NCBI GenBank assembly: GCA_036149055.1
Contig: JAYZQJ010000268.1
Span: forward strand, 10,904 to 74,903
Direction: 5' to 3'
From: Myxococcota bacterium
GTDB taxonomy: Bacteria > Myxococcota_A > Polyangia > Polyangiales > Sandaracinaceae
DNA length: 64,000 bases
The position numbers and the translations under genes are program-made. The notes below the pieces were generated by a model. The model ran no database searches, was not told the DNA's origin, and worked only from the letters and a program-made list of their open reading frames with translations. Numbering within the stretch: position 1 is the first letter of the stretch; every line of letters starts with the position of its first letter. Below are positions 1-58,712 of the stretch, one piece after another.

Positions 1-247
1 GTCGGAGGAGGACCGCGCCACGGTCGACCGCGCGCGGAAGATCCAGAAGTACCTCAGCCAGCCGTTCTTCGTCGCCGAGCAGTTCACCGGCATGAAGGGC
101 AAGTACGTCACCCTCGAAGAGACCATCAGCGGCTTCGAGGAGATCCTCAGCGGCGCCCTCGACGACATCCCCGAGCAGGCTTTCATCTACAAGGGGAACA
201 TCGAAGAGGTGAAGGCGGCGGCCGCGAAGATGAAGAAGGAGGGCTGA
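1..247 (+). CDS. atpD: ATP synthase F1 beta subunit, C-terminal part (5'-truncated by window edge)
   Basis: Frame from nt 2 reads [30 protein letters not shown]...[17 protein letters not shown]; stop TGA 245-247; atpC follows. Confidence 0.97.
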
Positions 248-251
248 GGCC

Positions 252-671
252 ATGGCCGAAGCCGAGCTCCTCAGGCTCGAGATCGCGACCCCGGTGGGCC
301 TCGCGCTCCAGACGGAGTGCGAGTCGATCGCCGCGCCCAGCGTGGAGGGCGAGTTCGGGGTCTACCCGGGCCACCTCCCGCTCCTCGCGGCGCTGCGCTC
401 CGGCGTCGTGAAGTACGAGGTCGAGGGCCGCTCGCTGCTCGCGGCGGTGGGACCGGGCTTCGTCGAGGCGGGACCCGAGAAGGTCCTGCTCCTCACCGAC
501 GCCTTCGCCCTGCCCGAGCAGGTCGACGTCGAGTCGGTGCGCGCCGAGCTGGCGGAGGCCGAGGAGAAGCTCGACGGCCTCGACCCCGACGCGCCCCGCT
601 CCGACATGGAAGAGCTGCAGCGCGAGATCGAGTGGGCGCACGCCCGCCTCGCGATCGCCACGCACGAGTGA
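252..671 (+). CDS. atpC: ATP synthase F1 epsilon subunit
   Basis: LEIATP...GEFGVYPGHLPLL...GFVE motif; directly after atpD. Confidence 0.96.
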   Translation: MAEAELLRLEIATPVGLALQTECESIAAPSVEGEFGVYPGHLPLLAALRSGVVKYEVEGRSLLAAVGPGFVEAGPEKVLLLTDAFALPEQVDVESVRAELAEAEEKLDGLDPDAPRSDMEELQREIEWAHARLAIATHE

Positions 672-36811: not shown

Positions 36812-37345
36812 GTGAAGAAGATCCTCGTCGGTGCGCTCGTGGGGCTCGCGGCCGGGCTCCCGGGCGGGTGGTTCGGCAACGTCCACTTCGCGCAGGGGCT
36901 CGGGCTGGACGGCGACGAGATCGAGGCCCGGGTGCTCGAGGAGCGCCGCGAGGACGAGCGGCTCGTGCTGATGCTCCAGGCGGAGGACGAGACGATCCTC
37001 GCGACGTTCAGCGAGCGGCCGGACGACGTGGCCCAGCTGGTCGACCCGGGCGACTCGGTCACGATCTTCGTGCGGGCGGACAGCCCGTTCGCGGACGACG
37101 TGCCGATCCTCTCGGTGCGGAGGGGAGAGGGGCGCGGCTCGAGCGAGGGCTCGGCGGAGGCGGAGGCCGAGACCGAAGCCACGACCGAAGCCGAGGCCGA
37201 GACCGAAGCCGAAGCCGAAGCCGAGGCCGAGACCGAGACCGAAGCCGAGACCGAGGCCGAGTCCGAGGCCGAGTCCGAGGCCGAGTCCGGAGGCGAGGCG
37301 GAGGGCGGGGACGCGGCGCCGCTCTTGACCCGCGGGCGGACTTGA
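36812..37345 (+). CDS. Membrane-anchored protein with acidic (EA/ET)n tail
   Basis: N-terminal TM; tandem GAGGCC/GAGACC/GAAGCC repeats at about 37158-37300. Confidence 0.7.
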   Translation: MKKILVGALVGLAAGLPGGWFGNVHFAQGLGLDGDEIEARVLEERREDERLVLMLQAEDETILATFSERPDDVAQLVDPGDSVTIFVRADSPFADDVPILSVRRGEGRGSSEGSAEAEAETEATTEAEAETEAEAEAEAETETEAETEAESEAESEAESGGEAEGGDAAPLLTRGRT

Positions 37346-50954: not shown

Positions 50955-51128
50955 ATGGCGAATCTGGAAGAAGAGGCCTTCAAGCGGGACCGTCGGTTCC
51001 TGTGGCGGCTGGTGCTGGTCCTGGTGGTCGGCGCCATGGCCGGCGTCTGGATGTTCGCCGAGCTGACCGGCGAGCGCGTGGCCGGCTGCGCCGCGGAGAG
51101 CTTCGGCGGGGTCACCGGCGCTCGCTGA
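50955..51128 (+). CDS. Small single-TM protein
   Basis: GAGG RBS; MANLEEEAFKRDRRFLWRLVLVLVVG. Confidence 0.65.
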   Translation: MANLEEEAFKRDRRFLWRLVLVLVVGAMAGVWMFAELTGERVAGCAAESFGGVTGAR

Positions 51129-51216: not shown

Positions 51217-51543
51217 ATGCTGAAGCAGCTGGACAAGGAAGACCGTCTTCGCCTGATGAAGTTCGTGTGCTCGTTCGCCTGGGCGGACCTCCAGATCGCC
51301 GAGAGCGAGGTGAAGATGGTCCAGAAGCTCGTGCGGAAGCTGAAGCTCGACGACGACGAGAAGAAGCAGGTCGAGCAGTGGCTCGAGCTGCCGCCGACCG
51401 CCGAAGAGCTCGACCCGACGCAGATCCCGCAGGAGCACCGCGCCCTCTTCCTCACCACGGTCCGCGAGATGATCGAGGTGGACGGCGACATCGCCGAGGA
51501 AGAGGTCGAGAACTTCGAGCTCCTCGAGCAGCTGCTCACCTGA
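51217..51543 (+). CDS. TerB-family protein
   Basis: FAWADLQIAESE and IEVDGDIAEEE paired motifs. Confidence 0.85.
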   Translation: MLKQLDKEDRLRLMKFVCSFAWADLQIAESEVKMVQKLVRKLKLDDDEKKQVEQWLELPPTAEELDPTQIPQEHRALFLTTVREMIEVDGDIAEEEVENFELLEQLLT

Positions 51544-51558: not shown

Positions 51559-53424
51559 TTGGGCTGGGACGCCGAGCTCGCGATCGCCGCCGGGCGCATC
51601 GATCTCCTGATCGAGGGCGTCCGGGAGGCGCGGGGCATCGCGGCGCGCAGGTTCGCGCGCGACGCCCTCGCGCGCGGCCTGATGAACGCGGACCCCGGCG
51701 CGGTCTCGGAGGCGGATCGCGCGGCGGCCCTGAGCCTGAAGGTCGATCCCTCGACCGTCGCCGCCGCCTCGGCGCCGCGGCTGCCGCACGCGGTGGCCGT
51801 GCCCCTGGTCGCGCGCGATCGCGGGGTCGGGTTCGTCCGACAGGTGCACGTCGCCTTCGACCCGGTCGGGCTCTGGGTGGACGAGGGCTGGCTCGACCCG
51901 ACGGCCCGCCGCGCGCTCGGCGACGCCCTCGCCGCCGCCGCCCGGGTCGCCTCGCCGCCGCGCGAGCTCGAGCAGTACCGGCTGGTGGCCGCGCAGCCGG
52001 CCGCGCTCCGTCGCTCCCGGGTGGACGGCCCCTCCCTGGCGGCGGCCGCGCTCGCCTCGGCGGTCTCGCTCTGGACCGAGCGCCCGGTCCGCGACGACAC
52101 CGTGGTCACCGGCGCGGTCCGGGGCGACGCGGTGCTGCCGGTGGGCGAGATGGGGGCCAAGGTCGAGGCGGCGGCGGCGCACGGGGCCACCCCGATCCTG
52201 GTGCCCGCGGGTGACGCCGCCGAGGCGCGCCGTCGCGCGGGCGAGGGCCTCGCGGTGGTCCCGATCGACGGGGTCGAGGCGCTCCTCGCCGAGGCGCTCG
52301 CGCCGGCCGAGGCGCGCGTCCACCCGGACCGGGCGATGGACGAGGCCCGGCGGGTCTTCTCGAGCGGGTGGCGCGGCTACCGCTGGCCCACCGTGCGCGA
52401 GACCCTGTCGCGCCTCGGCGGCACCCTGCCCGAGGGCCGGCTCGACCTGCGCGTGGAGGCCCTGACCCGGCTCGCCGCCGCGCACCGCCACCTCGGCGAC
52501 CCGGCGGGCAGCCTGGATCTGTTGCGCGAGGCGGAGGCGATCGCGGGGTCCGAGGAGGGCCGCGCCGCGGTGCCCGACGCGCCGCTGACCTACCTCTTCC
52601 AGCACATGGCGATGACGCACCGGCAGCTCTGCCGCTTCGAGGAGGCGACCGAGAGCGCGGCCCGCAGCGTGGCGATCGCGCGGACGGCCCGGCTCCGCGG
52701 GGAGCTGATCAAGGCGCTCGGCTGCGCGGGCCTGGTCGCGATGTCGGAGGCGCGCACCGCGGACGCGATCGCGGCCTTCGGGGAGTCGCTCGAGGTGGCC
52801 GAGCGCCACGACCCCACCCGGAACGCCCGGACGCGCGCCTACCTGATCGAGGCCCACGCGGCCGCCGGCGACGAGGAGGGCGCGCGGACCCAGGCCGAGG
52901 CCGCGCTCGCCGCGCTGCGGGACGCGGGCGAGGACGGCGGCTCGCGCGAGAGCTGGGTGCGCACGAGCTGGGCCGGGGCGCTGCTCGCGCTCCGCCGCCC
53001 CGACGAGGCGATCGCCGCCCTCGACGTGCCCGCGGTCCGGGCCAGCCTCGAGGAGGAGCCCCTCCCCGGCCTGCTCGCCCGCCGCCACCTCGGGGTGGCC
53101 CTCGCGGAGGGGGCGCGCCCCGAGCACGGCTTCGAGATCCTCGCCGCGTCCCCGGTCGTGCACGGGCGCGCGCTCGAGCCGCATCTGTCCTTCCTCGCCC
53201 ACCTGAACGTGTTGTTCGAGGCCCGGGCGCGCCTGGCCCGAGGCGCCTGGAGCCGGGACGTCGAGGGGCGGGCCGCCCGCGCGCTCACCCACGTCCCGCG
53301 GCACGGGCGGGTGGAGGCGTTCCTCGGCGCGGCGCTCGGAGAGGTCCGCGCACAGCTCGAGGCCGGGGCCCCCGATCTCGACCGGCTCGACGCGCTGCTC
53401 ACTCGCTGCGCGCGCCTCGGTTGA
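51559..53424 (+). CDS. Lon (S16) protease domain fused to TPR array, no AAA+ domain
   Basis: VDGPS (Ser codon 52033), PVRDDTVVTGAV, VLPVGEMGAK (Lys codon 52159), ILVP; helical TPR-like C-terminal two-thirds; start uncertain. Confidence 0.8.
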   Translation: MGWDAELAIAAGRIDLLIEGVREARGIAARRFARDALARGLMNADPGAVSEADRAAALSLKVDPSTVAAASAPRLPHAVAVPLVARDRGVGFVRQVHVAFDPVGLWVDEGWLDPTARRALGDALAAAARVASPPRELEQYRLVAAQPAALRRSRVDGPSLAAAALASAVSLWTERPVRDDTVVTGAVRGDAVLPVGEMGAKVEAAAAHGATPILVPAGDAAEARRRAGEGLAVVPIDGVEALLAEALAPAEARVHPDRAMDEARRVFSSGWRGYRWPTVRETLSRLGGTLPEGRLDLRVEALTRLAAAHRHLGDPAGSLDLLREAEAIAGSEEGRAAVPDAPLTYLFQHMAMTHRQLCRFEEATESAARSVAIARTARLRGELIKALGCAGLVAMSEARTADAIAAFGESLEVAERHDPTRNARTRAYLIEAHAAAGDEEGARTQAEAALAALRDAGEDGGSRESWVRTSWAGALLALRRPDEAIAALDVPAVRASLEEEPLPGLLARRHLGVALAEGARPEHGFEILAASPVVHGRALEPHLSFLAHLNVLFEARARLARGAWSRDVEGRAARALTHVPRHGRVEAFLGAALGEVRAQLEAGAPDLDRLDALLTRCARLG

Positions 53425-53458
53425 CTCCACCGCCTCCCGCGAAGAGGATGCCCCGCGC

Positions 53459-54220
53459 GTGGCCCTGCCCCCTGCCGAGCCCCTGTTCGCGCACCTCAGC
53501 GCGCTGAAGGAGGCCGAGGATCCGACGGATCCCCGGCACGCGGCGCGCTGGCGCGCGGTCTCCGAGTGGCTGGAGGCGGCGTTCCCGGGCGAGCGCGACG
53601 GGCTGGCCGACGCCCGCCAGGAGGCGCTCTTCAGCCTGGTGCGCCACGTGCCCCACATGCGGGCCGAGGCCCCGCTGCAGTGCGCCAAGTGGGTCGCGAC
53701 CATCGTGCGGCGCAAGCGGGTCGACGCCCTGCGCGCCCGCAAGAACGATCCGCTGCTCGAGGGCATGAAGCACGAGCCGAGGACCCCGGGGCCGCCGCTC
53801 GTCGACCGGCTGGAGTCCGAGGACGCGCGGGTCCTGCCGCCGGGCGCGCTCGAGCAGCTGGTCGAGACCGCGCTCGAGCACGTGCATCGGGCGCTCGAGG
53901 ACGAGATCAAGAGCGCGAGCCGGCGCAACCTGCGGCGGACCCAGGCGCAGGCGACCCTGCTGCGCGTGGTGTGCGGCTGGGACGCGGACGAGATCGCCGA
54001 GGTCCTCGAGGCGGGCGAGCCCATCGGCAAGGACCGCCTCTACAAGTGGGTCGAGCGGGGCCGGGCGCCGGCGCTCCTCGGCCTGGAGCGCTGGGCCGCC
54101 GCCGACGAGGAGGCGCGCGACGTGATCGCGGTGATCCGCGAGCTGGTCGAGGAGCGCCGCGCGGACGCCGGGAAGCCGCGCCCGGATCGGCGACGCGATC
54201 GCCCCGAGGAGCCCTCGTGA
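53459..54220 (+). CDS. Divergent ECF-type sigma70 factor
   Basis: Region 2-like ADARQEALFSL...KWVATIVRRKRVDALR; region 4-like LLRVVCGWDADEIAEVL...LYKWVERGR. Confidence 0.75.
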   Translation: MALPPAEPLFAHLSALKEAEDPTDPRHAARWRAVSEWLEAAFPGERDGLADARQEALFSLVRHVPHMRAEAPLQCAKWVATIVRRKRVDALRARKNDPLLEGMKHEPRTPGPPLVDRLESEDARVLPPGALEQLVETALEHVHRALEDEIKSASRRNLRRTQAQATLLRVVCGWDADEIAEVLEAGEPIGKDRLYKWVERGRAPALLGLERWAAADEEARDVIAVIRELVEERRADAGKPRPDRRRDRPEEPS

Positions 54221-54450
54221 GGCACGAGATCACAGGTTTTTCGAAGGTTCGACGTCTCTTTTTCGCCGAAAGCGTCAGTAGGGTCGGATCCCCCCCGTCT
54301 CGGTGCGTGTGGCGGCCGGGCCCCGCGGCGATCGGTCGAGATCCGCGGGTCGGGATCCTCTCCCCCCCTCCGCCACCGATGGAGCCGAGCACGACCGACG
54401 CGAACAGCGCCCCCTCGGCGGGGCGGAGGGACGACGGGAGCAGACGATGA
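54217..54450 (+). CDS. Possible 77-aa ORF coupled at both ends
   Basis: GTGA overlap with the sigma stop and ATGA overlap with the next start; atypical codon use. Confidence 0.45.
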   Translation: MRHEITGFSKVRRLFFAESVSRVGSPPSRCVWRPGPAAIGRDPRVGILSPPPPPMEPSTTDANSAPSAGRRDDGSRR

Positions 54451-55271
54451 CCGATGCGTTGATTCGAGGGTGGCGGGAGCGGGCCGAGCGCGCGGCGGGC
54501 TGGTCGTCCGGGGCGGACCCGGAGCCGGTGCTCGAGGCGCTGGCGATGACGGTGGCCCTGGAGCTCACCGGGGCGCTCACCGCGGTCCCGAGCGCGGAGC
54601 GGGACGCGCTGCGCAAGCTCGGGCAGCGGGCCCTCCTCAACGTGGGCGGCCGCGATCTCGACGAGGACGAGCTCGAGGCGCTGCGCCTCGCCGCGTCGAT
54701 CGCGCGGGACGGGCTGCGCGCGCTCTCGGGGCGGCCCCTGCCCGACGAGCGCGAGCTCGGGGGCGAGGCGCGGGCGACCCTCCCGGTCGGCGACCTGCGC
54801 CGCCTGCTCGACGGCGCGCTCGACGGCTTCGCCGCGGGAGCGCTCGCGATGCGGGCCCGGCGATCGCCGGCGGCGGTGCGCGAGCTGCGGGCGATGCTCG
54901 GCCTCCACGCGCCCTCCTACGCCGAGACCGGGGCGCGCACGCTGTCGCTCGCGGCGGCGGAGGCGGCGCGGGTGCTCGACCCGGCCGAGGGTCACCCGAT
55001 CGGCGCGCTCGACGCCGTCGGCGCCGAGGCGATCCTGTTCGAGGGCCCGGTCGACCCCGCGCACGAGCGGCGGATCGCCGTCTACGCCGAAGATCCGTCG
55101 CCGCTCCGGCTGGTGGCCGAGGGGCTCACCACCGAGGACGTGCGCGAGGGATACTGGATCGGCCGCGTCGCCGACGGCCTCGAGCGGCTCGAAGCGGTGC
55201 TGCACGTCGGAGAGGCCACGCACGCGTGGCCGCTCGATCTGAGCTTGGCGTCTCCGAGGGCGCCCGAGTAG
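54447..55271 (+). CDS. Putative soluble anti-sigma factor
   Basis: LRRLLDGALDGFAAGALAMRARRSPAAVREL resembles a zinc-less anti-sigma domain; LSLAAA linker; beta-rich C-terminus. Confidence 0.55.
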   Translation: MTDALIRGWRERAERAAGWSSGADPEPVLEALAMTVALELTGALTAVPSAERDALRKLGQRALLNVGGRDLDEDELEALRLAASIARDGLRALSGRPLPDERELGGEARATLPVGDLRRLLDGALDGFAAGALAMRARRSPAAVRELRAMLGLHAPSYAETGARTLSLAAAEAARVLDPAEGHPIGALDAVGAEAILFEGPVDPAHERRIAVYAEDPSPLRLVAEGLTTEDVREGYWIGRVADGLERLEAVLHVGEATHAWPLDLSLASPRAPE

Positions 55272-55290: not shown

Positions 55291-55722
55291 ATGTCATCGC
55301 GTCTCGAACAATTGTGCCTCGACAAGGGGCTCCGTATGACCGAGCAGCGCCGGGTGATCGCCCGGGTGCTCTCCGACTCGACCGACCACCCGGACGTGGA
55401 GACGGTGTACCAGCGCGCGTCGGAGATAGACTCGGGGATCGGGCTCGCGACCGTCTACCGCACGCTGCGGCTCTTCGAGGAGGCGAACATCCTCGAGCGG
55501 CACGACTTCGGCGACGGGCGGGCGCGCTACGAGGAGGCCCCCGAGGAGCACCACGATCACCTGATCGACGTGCAGAGCGGCGACGTGGTCGAGTTCACCA
55601 ACGAGGCCATCGAGAAGCTGCAGAAGAAGGTCGCCGAGGAGCTCGGCTACCGCCTGGTCGATCATCGCCTCGAGCTCTACGGCGTGAAGATCGACTCGAA
55701 GAAGAGCAAGAAGAAGAAGTAG
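55291..55722 (+). CDS. fur: Fur-family transcriptional regulator
   Basis: MTEQR, DHPD, ATVYRTL, HHDHLID. Confidence 0.93.
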   Translation: MSSRLEQLCLDKGLRMTEQRRVIARVLSDSTDHPDVETVYQRASEIDSGIGLATVYRTLRLFEEANILERHDFGDGRARYEEAPEEHHDHLIDVQSGDVVEFTNEAIEKLQKKVAEELGYRLVDHRLELYGVKIDSKKSKKKK

Positions 55723-55729
55723 GCCGGCC

Positions 55730-56863
<1,134 letters not shown>

Positions 56864-56869
56864 GCCGGG

Positions 56870-57774
56870 TCAGAAGAAGGCGAAGGTCCGGACCTCGAGG
56901 CTCCGCCGGGGCGGGGCGTCCGGCGGCGCGAGCGGGTTCTCGAACGAGGCGTGCGGGGTCACCCCGACGCGGGCCGGGTCGCTGTCGTACACCACGAACA
57001 CGATGGCCTCGTCGCGCCGGAGCTCGGGGAACCAGCGCCAGCGCTGCGCCGGGTGGTGAGCGAGCTGGTAGATCGAGCCGACGCGATCGGCGTGGCGCCG
57101 CTCGCAGAAGACGAGATCCTCGCGGCGGACTGAAGATGCGGCAAGTATTGCCGCAGCTTCCACGCGCGTGAGCGCGTGAGATGGGGTGGGAGCCCGAGCC
57201 GGCTTCGCCGGTCGGGCGGGAGGGGGCGCATGCCCCCTCCGGAAACCGAGCCGGCCTCGCAGAGCGTCAGCGGGTCGCGCGCGATCGGCTCGTGGGTGGG
57301 GCGCCAGACCTGCACGATCGCGAAGCGGCGCGGGAGGAGCGCCTCGGCTTCGTCCGGGAGCGCGTGCCGGAGCCGATCCGGGCCCGACGTGTCGGTGTAG
57401 TCGTTGTGCGCGATGCGCACCGGCTCGCGCAGCTGCGCCGCCTCCCGCTCCGCGTCGTCGCCGCTCCGGCGGGTCCGGTCGAAGAGCTCGACCCGCGCGG
57501 CCCCGGTGACGCGCTTCACCAGCGCCTTCACCTCGGGCGCGTAGACCGCGTCGAGCTCGGCCTCGTCGGCGAAGTCGCGCACCGCGGTCGGGCAGGCGAC
57601 CCGCGCGAAGCCCTCTCGCGCCAGCGTCGCGCCCTCGCAGGGCCGGATCTCCACCTCGTGCGCCTCGAGCTCGCCTTCGTAGCTGCGCAGCCGTCCCCCG
57701 GGGCCGTGGGTCGCGACCACCCGGATCCCTTCGCCCGGGACCGCGAACTGGAGCGTGGCCCGGACGACGCTCAC
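56870..57774 (-). pseudogene. CmcJ/NvfI/AsaB-family oxidoreductase disrupted by a 116-nt insertion
   Basis: 5' frame: FDRTRR, AHNDYT, VQVWRP, DPLTLC; 3' frame: RWRWFP, YDS, TPHASF, RRSLEVR; removing 57131-57246 gives one 789-nt ORF. Confidence 0.85.
57131..57246 (-). mobile_element. 116-nt four-hairpin non-autonomous insertion
   Basis: Interrupts CEAGSV|RREDL; flanked by duplicated AC/GT; four consecutive hairpins. Confidence 0.8.
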
Positions 57775-58712
57775 CGCTCGTCCCCGGCGAGGATGCGGCG
57801 GTAACTGTCGTAGCGCGCCGGGTCGATCTCGCCGCGCTCCAGCGCCTCGCGCACCGCGCAGCCGGGCTCGTGCACGTGGGCGCAGTCGGGGAAGCGGCAG
57901 GCGCCGAGGAACGGGCGCATCTCCGGGAAACACGCGGGCAGCTCGCGCGCCGGCAGCTCGAAGGAGGCGAGCTCGCGGATGCCGGGCGTGTCGGCGACCC
58001 AGCCGCCGCCCTCGAGCGGGTGCAGCTCGGCCACCCGGGTCGTGTGCCGGCCCTTGTCGAGGGTGTCGCTGATCGCGCCGATGGCCTTTCCGAGCCCGGG
58101 CTCGAGCGCGTTCAGCAGGCTGCTCTTGCCGACGCCCGAGGGCCCGACGAAGGCGCTGACCCCGCCGCGCAGGCGCTCGCGGAGCGGCTCGATCCCCTCG
58201 CCGGTCAGCGCGCTCGTGTAGGTCACCGGGTAGCCGAGGGCGGCGTACGGGGCGAACACCTCCTCGGCGCGGTCGCGCTCCACCTGATCGATCTTGTTCG
58301 CGACGATGACCGCGTCGAGCCCGTCGAGCTCGGCGACCACCAGGAACCGGTCGAGCAGCCGGGGGTTCGGCGGCGGGCTGGCGCACGCGAAGACGAGCGC
58401 GAGCCAGTCGAGGTTCGCCACCATCACGTGCTCTTTGTAGCGCCCCCGGCCGCCGGGCTGACGGCGCGCGAAGCGGTTGTCCCGCTCCTCCACCGCCTCG
58501 ATCACGCCCTCCCCCTCCGCGTCCGGCAGGAGCGTGACCTGGACGCGGTCGCCGATGACGACGAGGTCGGTGCGCGCCTTCTTCTCTTTCTTGAGGCGAC
58601 CGCGGAGCGAGCAGTGGATCACCCCCTGCTCGGTGAGCACCCAGTGCTGCCCGCTCTGACTCCTGAGCACTCGACCGGAGAGCCACGTCATGCGCGCGGT
58701 CGGAGATGCCAC
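57771..58712 (-). CDS. rsgA: Ribosome small subunit-dependent GTPase A
   Basis: NKID, GPSGVGKSS, GRHTT, DTPG, CRFPDCAHVHEPGC; start may be ATG 58691. Confidence 0.96.
   Translation of the reverse strand: MASPTARMTWLSGRVLRSQSGQHWVLTEQGVIHCSLRGRLKKEKKARTDLVVIGDRVQVTLLPDAEGEGVIEAVEERDNRFARRQPGGRGRYKEHVMVANLDWLALVFACASPPPNPRLLDRFLVVAELDGLDAVIVANKIDQVERDRAEEVFAPYAALGYPVTYTSALTGEGIEPLRERLRGGVSAFVGPSGVGKSSLLNALEPGLGKAIGAISDTLDKGRHTTRVAELHPLEGGGWVADTPGIRELASFELPARELPACFPEMRPFLGACRFPDCAHVHEPGCAVREALERGEIDPARYDSYRRILAGDER

Follow-up and report, generated by a model that had tools for sequence, protein, structure and literature searches.

CRISPR immunity offers known examples of a protease coupled to an anti-sigma protein and an alternative sigma factor; which genes the sigma factors naturally control there is poorly defined. 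In the CalpL-CalpT-CalpS cascade, CalpL, an ATP-independent Lon protease with a Ser-Lys dyad and a SAVED domain, cuts CalpT at LAA|A (between the second and third alanines of LAAA) in a poorly structured stretch. The cut is made not by the subunit that binds CalpT, whose active site is at a distance from the cut site, but by its neighbour, and the LAA end thus exposed marks the sigma-bound fragment for cellular proteases, a part played in RseA by VAA (bioRxiv 10.1101/2024.05.08.593097). In the type III-E system Csx29-Csx30-CASP-sigma, found in the same preprint, the protease is Csx29, a CHAT cysteine protease fused to tetratricopeptide repeats (TPR) and activated by the Cas7-11 complex. Here, a stretch of 64,000 nucleotides with high GC content (the window; contig JAYZQJ010000268.1 of the Myxococcota bacterium assembly GCA_036149055.1, Sandaracinaceae) was analysed, in which positions 51559-55271 of the + strand encode a TPR-fused Lon protease, a divergent ECF (extracytoplasmic function) sigma factor and a predicted anti-sigma protein, named ORF4 after its open reading frame (ORF). 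This module is probably, if by no means certainly, a CRISPR-independent protease switch of the CalpL/T/S kind, likely driving a DNA-damage or foreign-DNA regulon through the promoter motif GTCAGT-N16-CGTC. An earlier note on this DNA had proposed such CalpL/T/S-like logic, which is now supported by the co-occurrence of the genes, their order, the anti-sigma-type domain and LAA linker of ORF4, and a predicted protease-ORF4 complex.

The locus shares with CalpL-CalpT-CalpS the ATP-independent Lon-type Ser-Lys protease and the ECF-type sigma factor; ORF4, like CalpT, is soluble and has, before a small C-terminal beta domain, a disordered linker with LAA, and the N-terminal part of the protease is predicted to bind that domain, as it does in CalpL. 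On the other hand, a TPR array stands in place of SAVED, a zinc-anti-sigma-type domain takes the place in ORF4 of the MazF-type domain of CalpT, and the module is chromosomal and single-copy, with a predicted DNA-repair regulon and no type III CRISPR context. The protease and ORF4 have no sequence match to the CalpL or CalpT chains. The module would work like CalpL/T/S but is no member of that group, having neither SAVED nor CRISPR, and its trio architecture varies the known CalpL/T/S-type design. It also resembles the type III-E system in its TPR-fused protease, cleavable anti-sigma protein (cleavage being predicted here) and sigma factor, but the protease is a Lon serine enzyme with no Cas partner, and no CHAT match was obtained among the module proteins.

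Other described systems share further traits. DdvA-DdvS of Myxococcus xanthus likewise combines a myxobacterial ECF sigma factor, a zinc anti-sigma domain, a TPR-linked protease and control of defence genes, but DdvA unites its parts in a single membrane protein, with TPR-CHAT on the periplasmic side, and depends on RseP, whereas the parts are here cytoplasmic and separate (PMC11506125). In PprI(IrrE)-DdrO of Deinococcus a dedicated protease turns on DNA-repair genes independently of LexA, as is predicted here (PMC12288472); PprI, however, is a metalloprotease that is activated by single-stranded DNA (ssDNA) and cuts a repressor, whereas Lon would here cut an anti-sigma protein and an alternative sigma factor would transcribe. 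PafBC, DriD and other WYL activators exert positive, LexA-parallel control over recA and repair genes, again a predicted likeness, but as ssDNA-binding activators with no proteolysis and no alternative sigma factor; such WYL-activator control joins repair with anti-phage genes in Moraxellaceae (PMC7617703, PMC12392091). The three module proteins gave no match to the WYL activator or IrrE/XRE families in Pfam and NCBIfam. The DNA-damage responses listed in the available parts of PMC7617703 and PMC12288472 act through repressor cleavage (LexA, DdrO), ssDNA-binding activators (PafBC, DriD, SiwR) or methylation (Ada), and the combination of protease, anti-sigma protein and alternative sigma factor is absent from them; the predicted role is potentially a new class, if true. 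The literature searched, with partial coverage and supplements outside it, held no description of a Lon-TPR/sigma/ORF4 module nor of an ECF-sigma-run repair regulon like it. The available part of the ECF classification paper (PMC7826278) has no Lon-TPR-linked group, and its supplementary group tables may list the sigma factor or the promoter.

Conservation and parts of the module

Profile searches with the protease, the sigma factor and ORF4 were made in 201 genomes of the order Polyangiales. Presence of the protease was set at E 1e-20, a cut-off chosen after seeing the gap to ordinary Lon matches (8.6e-17 and weaker), and one weak ORF4 match was left out (G033, E 9.4e-4). The protease was found in 44 genomes, ORF4 in 44 and the sigma factor in 45; all three occur together in 43/201 (the carriers) and none in 156/201, or the trio in 42/200 once G119, an unpublished genome and the one carrier whose loci were not collected, is excluded. 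The incomplete trios are G163 (82% complete), without the protease, and G042 (sigma gene at a contig end), without ORF4. In one family (f9), the same 4/40 genomes hold all three genes. The sigma gene lies directly before ORF4 in 42/42 genomes with both collected (excluding G147, where both are at contig ends), and the protease gene is within about 4 kb of the pair in 24/42, elsewhere in 17 and not found in one. Ten of the 24 linked loci belong to other families without the E2/Fur surroundings, and three are flipped. The co-conservation that the earlier note had named as a check is thus present. In the window, the single-copy module lies among housekeeping genes, and its history, as read from the sequences, is vertical descent with joint loss. 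Outside the order, the ORF4 profile gave no strong match: among 351 genomes of the phylum there were three strong matches, all within the order, plus five weak ones, two of which are anti-sigma-like ORFs beside ECF-like genes. The protease profile (E 1e-19) matched 3/301 phylum genomes, all within the order, at a stringency that distant Lon-TPR families would escape. Among 1.84 billion representative proteins, the ORF4 profile found 144. The protease homologues carry the name Sandaracinaceae in their source records, and one homologue (P0045) belongs to the culturable Sandaracinus amylolyticus. RNA-seq contigs from four runs of two studies cover pieces of all three genes, one spanning sigma and ORF4, with strand, start and level not readable from them.

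The first gene had been read as a Lon protease with the catalytic lysine 42 residues after the serine, without an AAA+ module and fused to a TPR-like array, and each of these points is borne out. Against Pfam, Lon_C (PF05362) is above cut-off (28.2 bits, E 1.7e-6), together with TPR models. The DGPS of the protein aligns with the catalytic DGPS of Lon and K201 with the catalytic lysine; S159 and K201 are invariant in 80/80 aligned homologues, with a distance of 42 in 78 of them and 43 in two. Walker A is absent, and the match to the ATP-dependent Lon enzymes (LonA/LonB) is confined to the P domain. In the AlphaFold model (mean pLDDT 93.5), the C-terminal 370 residues form the TPR array; the model aligns over 173 residues with Lon proteolytic domains at Z 21.4 (rmsd 2.6 A) and over 311 residues with TPR arrays at Z 22.4 (rmsd 5.5 A). 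The Pfam scan did not match SAVED, and PADLOC gave just a weak CARF_LON match over the Lon domain (E 0.009).

The sigma factor forms a lineage-specific family of its own, in which a basic C-terminal tail is conserved. The earlier note had seen divergent sigma regions 2 and 4; Pfam Sigma70_r2 and r4_2 match weakly, below cut-off (region 4, E 0.028), NCBIfam gives a sigma match over residues 44-184, and the family profile matches region 2 of solved ECF sigma factors (E 1.8e-7). On these matches it is a divergent ECF sigma factor. Second sigma copies were observed in mobile-looking DNA (L108, L109, L110, L111), one with a truncated ORF4 that has neither LAA nor beta domain and three without ORF4; two lie behind a sigma54-activator-like gene, and those of L108 and L109 have a GTCAGT-N16-CGTC-type motif upstream. 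In six genomes of five families (L051, L053, L055, L057, L060, L076), a gene for a PrsW-family intramembrane metalloprotease is found directly upstream of sigma.

ORF4 has no family match in Pfam, NCBIfam or PADLOC and no membrane segment (hydropathy maximum 1.5). The absence of a membrane segment agrees with the earlier note, while the anti-sigma likeness also claimed there comes from weak matches and from the HxxxCxxC of relatives, which occurs at the aligned place in 7/77 aligned members and in 33/94 further matches (two of the 33 weak and probably unrelated). Residues 162-172 are the sole disordered stretch of the model. Within it, the AA at 169-170 is invariant (77/77 aligned), with a linker of free length before it and a variable residue after it, and xAA is present at this position in 88/94 further matches, mostly as LAA (48) or VAA (21). 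The beta sandwich has generic structure matches only (best Z 6.9, VIA-align), and the comparison with the DUF2080 domain of CalpT goes no further than such beta-sandwich matches; CalpT is unlisted among them, which excludes nothing. Foldseek was discarded for naming the ORF4 model, giving noise at whole-protein level and otherwise adaptin-ear beta sandwiches, and the ESM Atlas yielded one uninformative match at 0.78.

A complex model of the whole protease with ORF4 residues 152-270 scored 0.84, and the best of three controls 0.10. In the benchmark, this mark was reached by 116/157 solved and 2/215 mismatched pairs, a yardstick that is only roughly valid for the alignments made here, and such a score can also arise from resemblance to a complex already solved, for instance CalpL-CalpT. 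Across runs, at least 51% of the contacts agree, and the pLDDT of the partner is at least 74. The predicted interface places protease residues 26-36 and 522-578 against the beta domain of ORF4, with the best contacts between R31/A28 and ORF4 Y213, P179, E194 and Y236, all conserved. The protease is therefore predicted, by this modelling, to bind the beta domain of ORF4.

Promoter motif and predicted regulon

The gaps between sigma and ORF4 differ in length and sequence between genomes, except for GTCAG(T/A)-N15-17-CG(T/A)C, which is conserved in 42/42, with a spacer of 16 in 38/42 and CGTT at one locus. One fixed pattern matches 41/42 gaps, whereas shuffled gaps give a mean of 0.13 and a maximum of 2. 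In the genome of the window (G000), 36 GTCAGT-N16-CGTC sites are present, compared with 6.6 on average (12 at most) for 35 other spacers; 31 of the 36 are intergenic, a co-directional gene begins at most 200 nt downstream of 27/36 (11/62 for control sites), and at 12 sites the start codon lies 8-9 nt behind the -10, as expected of leaderless transcripts. The ECF41 promoter, TGTCACA-n16-CGTC, has the same -10, the same 16-nt spacer and a similar -35, but the -35 of the module is GTCAGT, and ECF41 has a fused regulatory extension and a single neighbouring target (PMC3426412). We infer that the sigma factor of the module reads GTCAGT-N16-CGTC.

An NCBIfam scan, made for 19 of the 31 intergenic sites plus a single GTCAGA variant, named targets in the window's genome. 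Above cut-off are recA, ssb, dnaB, recJ, radA and priA (the last as second gene), and partly below it parA/parB, a recB-like second gene, an addB-like gene (at the variant site), an SNF2 helicase and a REP-type transposase. The 31 intergenic sites divide into nine before repair, replication or segregation genes, seven before REP-type transposase genes, those before ORF4, a GxxExxY gene and a TetR gene, and 12 before unnamed or unscanned genes. Across genomes, the motif precedes the best recA match in 7/16 carriers (10/16 with one relaxed position) and 0/14 non-carriers, and radA in 6/15 carriers (8/15 relaxed) and 0/11 non-carriers; in two carriers the other recA paralogue was tested, and the motif precedes their second recA-like gene. 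In seven carriers, 58 of 69 candidate downstream ORFs were scanned (11 were dropped, mostly because the site lay inside a gene, and 13 further sites, already named by BLAST or belonging to module genes, stayed outside the count). Twenty-three of the 58 are repair, recombination or defence genes, 12 are other genes and 23 are unnamed, compared with 0/24 repair, recombination or defence genes in the module-free genome G124. Among these 23 are SSB, RecA-like (an ImuA-type gene among the named ones), RecC, AddB, SMC-type and exonuclease proteins, as well as Cse1, Cas3-HD, a type I-G Cas protein, DNA methylases, a restriction-type nuclease, the AbiEi antitoxin and an IrrE-like protein; recA, ssb and radA are the most constant targets of all. 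The regulon predicted from these sites comprises DNA repair and recombination and, in relatives, anti-phage genes, which narrows the 'stress or phage response' suggested earlier.

Some further observations concern the motif itself. The protease gene has a motif of its own in 2/37 loci only. Seven REP-type tyrosine transposase copies (G000:C116, C132, C143, C192, C198, C29 and C4; one scanned, six read by eye) start 9-10 nt behind the motif, and these elements may for that reason be induced by the module sigma factor. At L056 (G190:C141:113000-123000), five GTCAGA-type sites occur within 10 kb around the module, one before the protease and one before an ARPP-1 gene, and a local island may be the main output of the module in that family. 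In G135, a family member that is 82% complete, there are 22 motif sites and none of the three genes, which are probably missing from the assembly. At L127 (G000:C51), the radA frame begins 10 nt behind the motif and is interrupted in its N-terminal zinc-finger part by an in-frame TGA, either an assembly error or a true lesion. The genome-wide motif count was set aside as a weak marker of the module.

The absence of CRISPR context that the earlier note had reported holds on a wider view: no CRISPR array is present in the window, there are no cas genes among the scanned module neighbours, and a search of the 96%-complete assembly for Cas1 and Cmr2-type Cas10, though not for Csm1-type Cas10, turned up neither. 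A 6/12-nt low-complexity repeat at window 37124-37321 lies in a coding-like stretch and is no CRISPR array. Loss of LexA was considered as the reason for the module and dismissed, as LexA is above cut-off in 34/34 relatives; in the window's genome the search found only an 84-residue frame with the DNA-binding domain, probably because of an assembly gap. Two elements, CTGAAC...CAG past the recA promoter of that genome and GTTCA past the -10 of the ORF4 promoter in 6/42 loci, may be LexA boxes, by likeness to the myxobacterial box.

Proposed mechanism and rival explanations

In the cascade proposed here, ORF4 would at rest hold the sigma factor inactive through its anti-sigma-type domain and sit on the protease through its C-terminal beta domain. 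A signal from DNA damage, stalled replication or incoming DNA, to which the predicted regulon points, would reach the TPR array and switch on the Ser-Lys dyad, perhaps by oligomerisation as in CalpL. The protease would then likely cut ORF4 at the conserved LAA linker, perhaps in trans by a second protease molecule, and a cut after LAA would leave a C-terminal -AA tag by which ClpXP could destroy the sigma-bound fragment, both by analogy with CalpL/CalpT. The freed sigma factor would transcribe the motif-bearing genes, including recA, ssb, dnaB, recJ, radA, priA and the recB-like gene, and the motif before ORF4 would let it remake its own inhibitor and shut the response off. The module would act in parallel to LexA, with no replacement of it, and is likely a second DNA-damage alarm beside the classical LexA system. 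As a first guess, and the least certain step, the trigger may be ssDNA bound by the TPR array, because ssDNA activates RecA, PprI, PafBC, SiwR and DriD (PMC12288472, PMC7617703). For nucleic-acid sensing by the array there is thin support: among its conserved positions, 2/79 are acidic (12.8% of the composition), and three Trp are conserved. A bolder version, which falls somewhat short of probable, sees a new class of DNA-damage response, in which the Lon-TPR protease, activated by ssDNA or damage, destroys the anti-sigma protein and the sigma factor transcribes recA, repair, CRISPR and restriction genes; the CalpL/T/S cascades of CRISPR immunity would have in it their housekeeping counterpart and possibly their origin. 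Every step is directly testable, because a predicted promoter, regulon, cut site and interface are all in hand, and a connection of DNA repair with the control of anti-phage genes turns into a question that can be put in concrete terms.

Several observations weigh against this reading. Cleavage, binding of sigma by ORF4, promoter use and induction are all predicted or inferred steps. The ORF4 of the window has lost the zinc ligands, its three-helix domain matches the DdvA anti-sigma domain weakly (E 0.27), and zf-HC2 matches below cut-off in 3/30 motif-bearing or distant members. The protease tree (FastTree) groups by family and follows taxonomy, so that co-occurrence among kin is not independent evidence, and the protease is unlinked from sigma-ORF4 in the 17/42 genomes mentioned above. 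Arg makes up 12/79 conserved TPR positions against 13.8% of the composition, that is, it is not enriched, and nucleic-acid sensing gains little from it. Among the 31 intergenic sites, 12 stand before unnamed or unscanned genes and seven before transposase copies, maybe of one origin; the regulon is also not universal, since neither recA nor radA has the motif in any of the four f9 carriers, whose sites include few repair genes. Motif density is a median of 2.9 per Mb with the module and 1.7 without it (35 genomes each), with overlapping ranges, and G124 holds 35 sites and no module. Finally, PrsW before sigma in six genomes could be another input.

The main rival to ssDNA is a phage-protein trigger, in which the same cascade would serve a TPR array recognising a protein or peptide of a phage or mobile element, with a mainly anti-phage output and repair in support. 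The array is indeed similar to the peptide-binding TPRs of Rap, NprR, PlcR, AimR and LGN (Z 15-22), sites in relatives precede the Cas, methylase, restriction-type nuclease and AbiEi genes listed above, and CalpL/T/S and Csx29/30 are anti-phage systems (bioRxiv 10.1101/2024.05.08.593097). These fold matches are, however, generic, no targets are as constant as recA, ssb and radA, and the module is single-copy, vertically inherited and set in housekeeping surroundings in the window, all of which leaves a phage-protein trigger unlikely, if worth keeping in view. It is decidedly less probable that the sigma factor serves a programme of scheduled recombination, be it competence-like, developmental or tied to revival from dormancy, with no damage alarm. 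The streptococcal competence sigma factor also has recA, ssb and radA as core targets, and dnaB, priA and parAB would fit replication restart or outgrowth, but no DNA-uptake, DprA or pilin gene is found among the named targets, which do include repair genes of the ImuA-type RecA-like, RecC, AddB and SMC-type kinds.

The steps downstream of the signal have their own rivals. The protease might bind ORF4 without cutting at LAA, as a scaffold or with another substrate, while a PrsW-like protease or ClpXP alone frees the sigma factor. The complex model does not confidently place ORF4 residues 168-170 at the interface, and besides the PrsW genes before sigma in relatives, one PrsW is present in the window's genome, away from the module; yet the Ser-Lys dyad is invariant, ORF4 offers no membrane segment to an intramembrane protease, and in CalpL-CalpT the bound subunit likewise has its active site at a distance from the cut site, so that we judge this explanation improbable, slightly more so than a scheduled programme. 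That the genes are neighbours by descent only and the motif is read by another regulator is the least credible explanation, and we consider it very improbable: E2, the small membrane gene, TerB and Fur do share the gene order in close relatives, and motif sites occur in module-free genomes too, but the trio is together after moves and inversions in other families, the motif stands before ORF4 in every gap collected and before second sigma copies, and the protease-ORF4 complex is predicted with a high score. The protease-gated, CalpL/T/S-like switch with a repair-centred regulon thus remains the preferred reading.

Coordinates and neighbouring genes

The features of the locus are collected in Table 1. 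Of the four packed co-directional ORFs first noted here, the protease, sigma and ORF4 stand as genes and the small ORF falls away, its codon-model score being -30.5 compared with +60 to +189 for five neighbouring genes, with no syntenic homologue at 11/11 loci and a sigma-ORF4 gap whose length varies widely between genomes. The spacing of the TerB-like gene was correctly given, as the TTG start codon of the protease lies 15 nt past its stop at 51543, but a role in the system is not upheld: TerB is present in 103/201 genomes, compared with 43/201 for the trio, in 40/40 genomes of family f9, and away from the module in several families.

Table 1. Features of the locus (window coordinates in nucleotides; residue numbers refer to the protein named)
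Feature	Position	Strand	Basis or remark
Lon(S16)-TPR protease (ORF1), 621 aa	51559..53424	+	Pfam, alignment, structure model; no AAA+ module
Protease N-terminal helices	residues about 1-70	+	AlphaFold model
Lon proteolytic domain	residues about 75-250	+	PF05362, fold match
Protease S159 codon	52033-52035	+	alignment with Lon DGPS
Protease K201 codon	52159-52161	+	alignment with Lon catalytic Lys
TPR array of protease	residues about 255-620	+	Pfam TPR models, fold match
ECF-type sigma factor (ORF2), 253 aa	53459..54220	+	Pfam, NCBIfam, family profile
'Small ORF', not a gene; intergenic DNA with promoter motif	54217..54450	+	codon model, synteny
ECF-type promoter motif GTCAGT-N16-CGTC before ORF4	54274..54299	+	predicted -35 54274-54279, -10 54296-54299
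ORF4, predicted soluble anti-sigma protein, 274 aa	54447..55271, ATG start	+	model, weak profile matches
ORF4 helical domain	residues 1-95	+	model
ORF4 degenerate zinc-anti-sigma-type domain, three helices	residues about 113-154	+	model, HxxxCxxC of relatives
ORF4 disordered linker LAA	residues 168-170; 54948-54956	+	model, alignment
ORF4 beta-sandwich domain, predicted protease dock	residues about 176-264	+	model
TerB-like gene, 108 aa, neighbour, not core	51217..51543	+	Pfam, survey

Some other neighbours were also observed. A gene for a 57-aa membrane peptide (window 50955-51128), with no family match, is conserved before TerB in many relatives. Past ORF4, a Fur-family regulator follows after 19 nt, and then a FIST-domain gene and the RsgA GTPase (window 55291-56863 and 57774-58640); Fur is found after ORF4 in close relatives only. 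At L004-L007, a gene of 475-504 aa is inserted between protease and sigma, and its product has a coiled coil, a membrane segment and a repeated extracellular-type domain, with no Pfam match.

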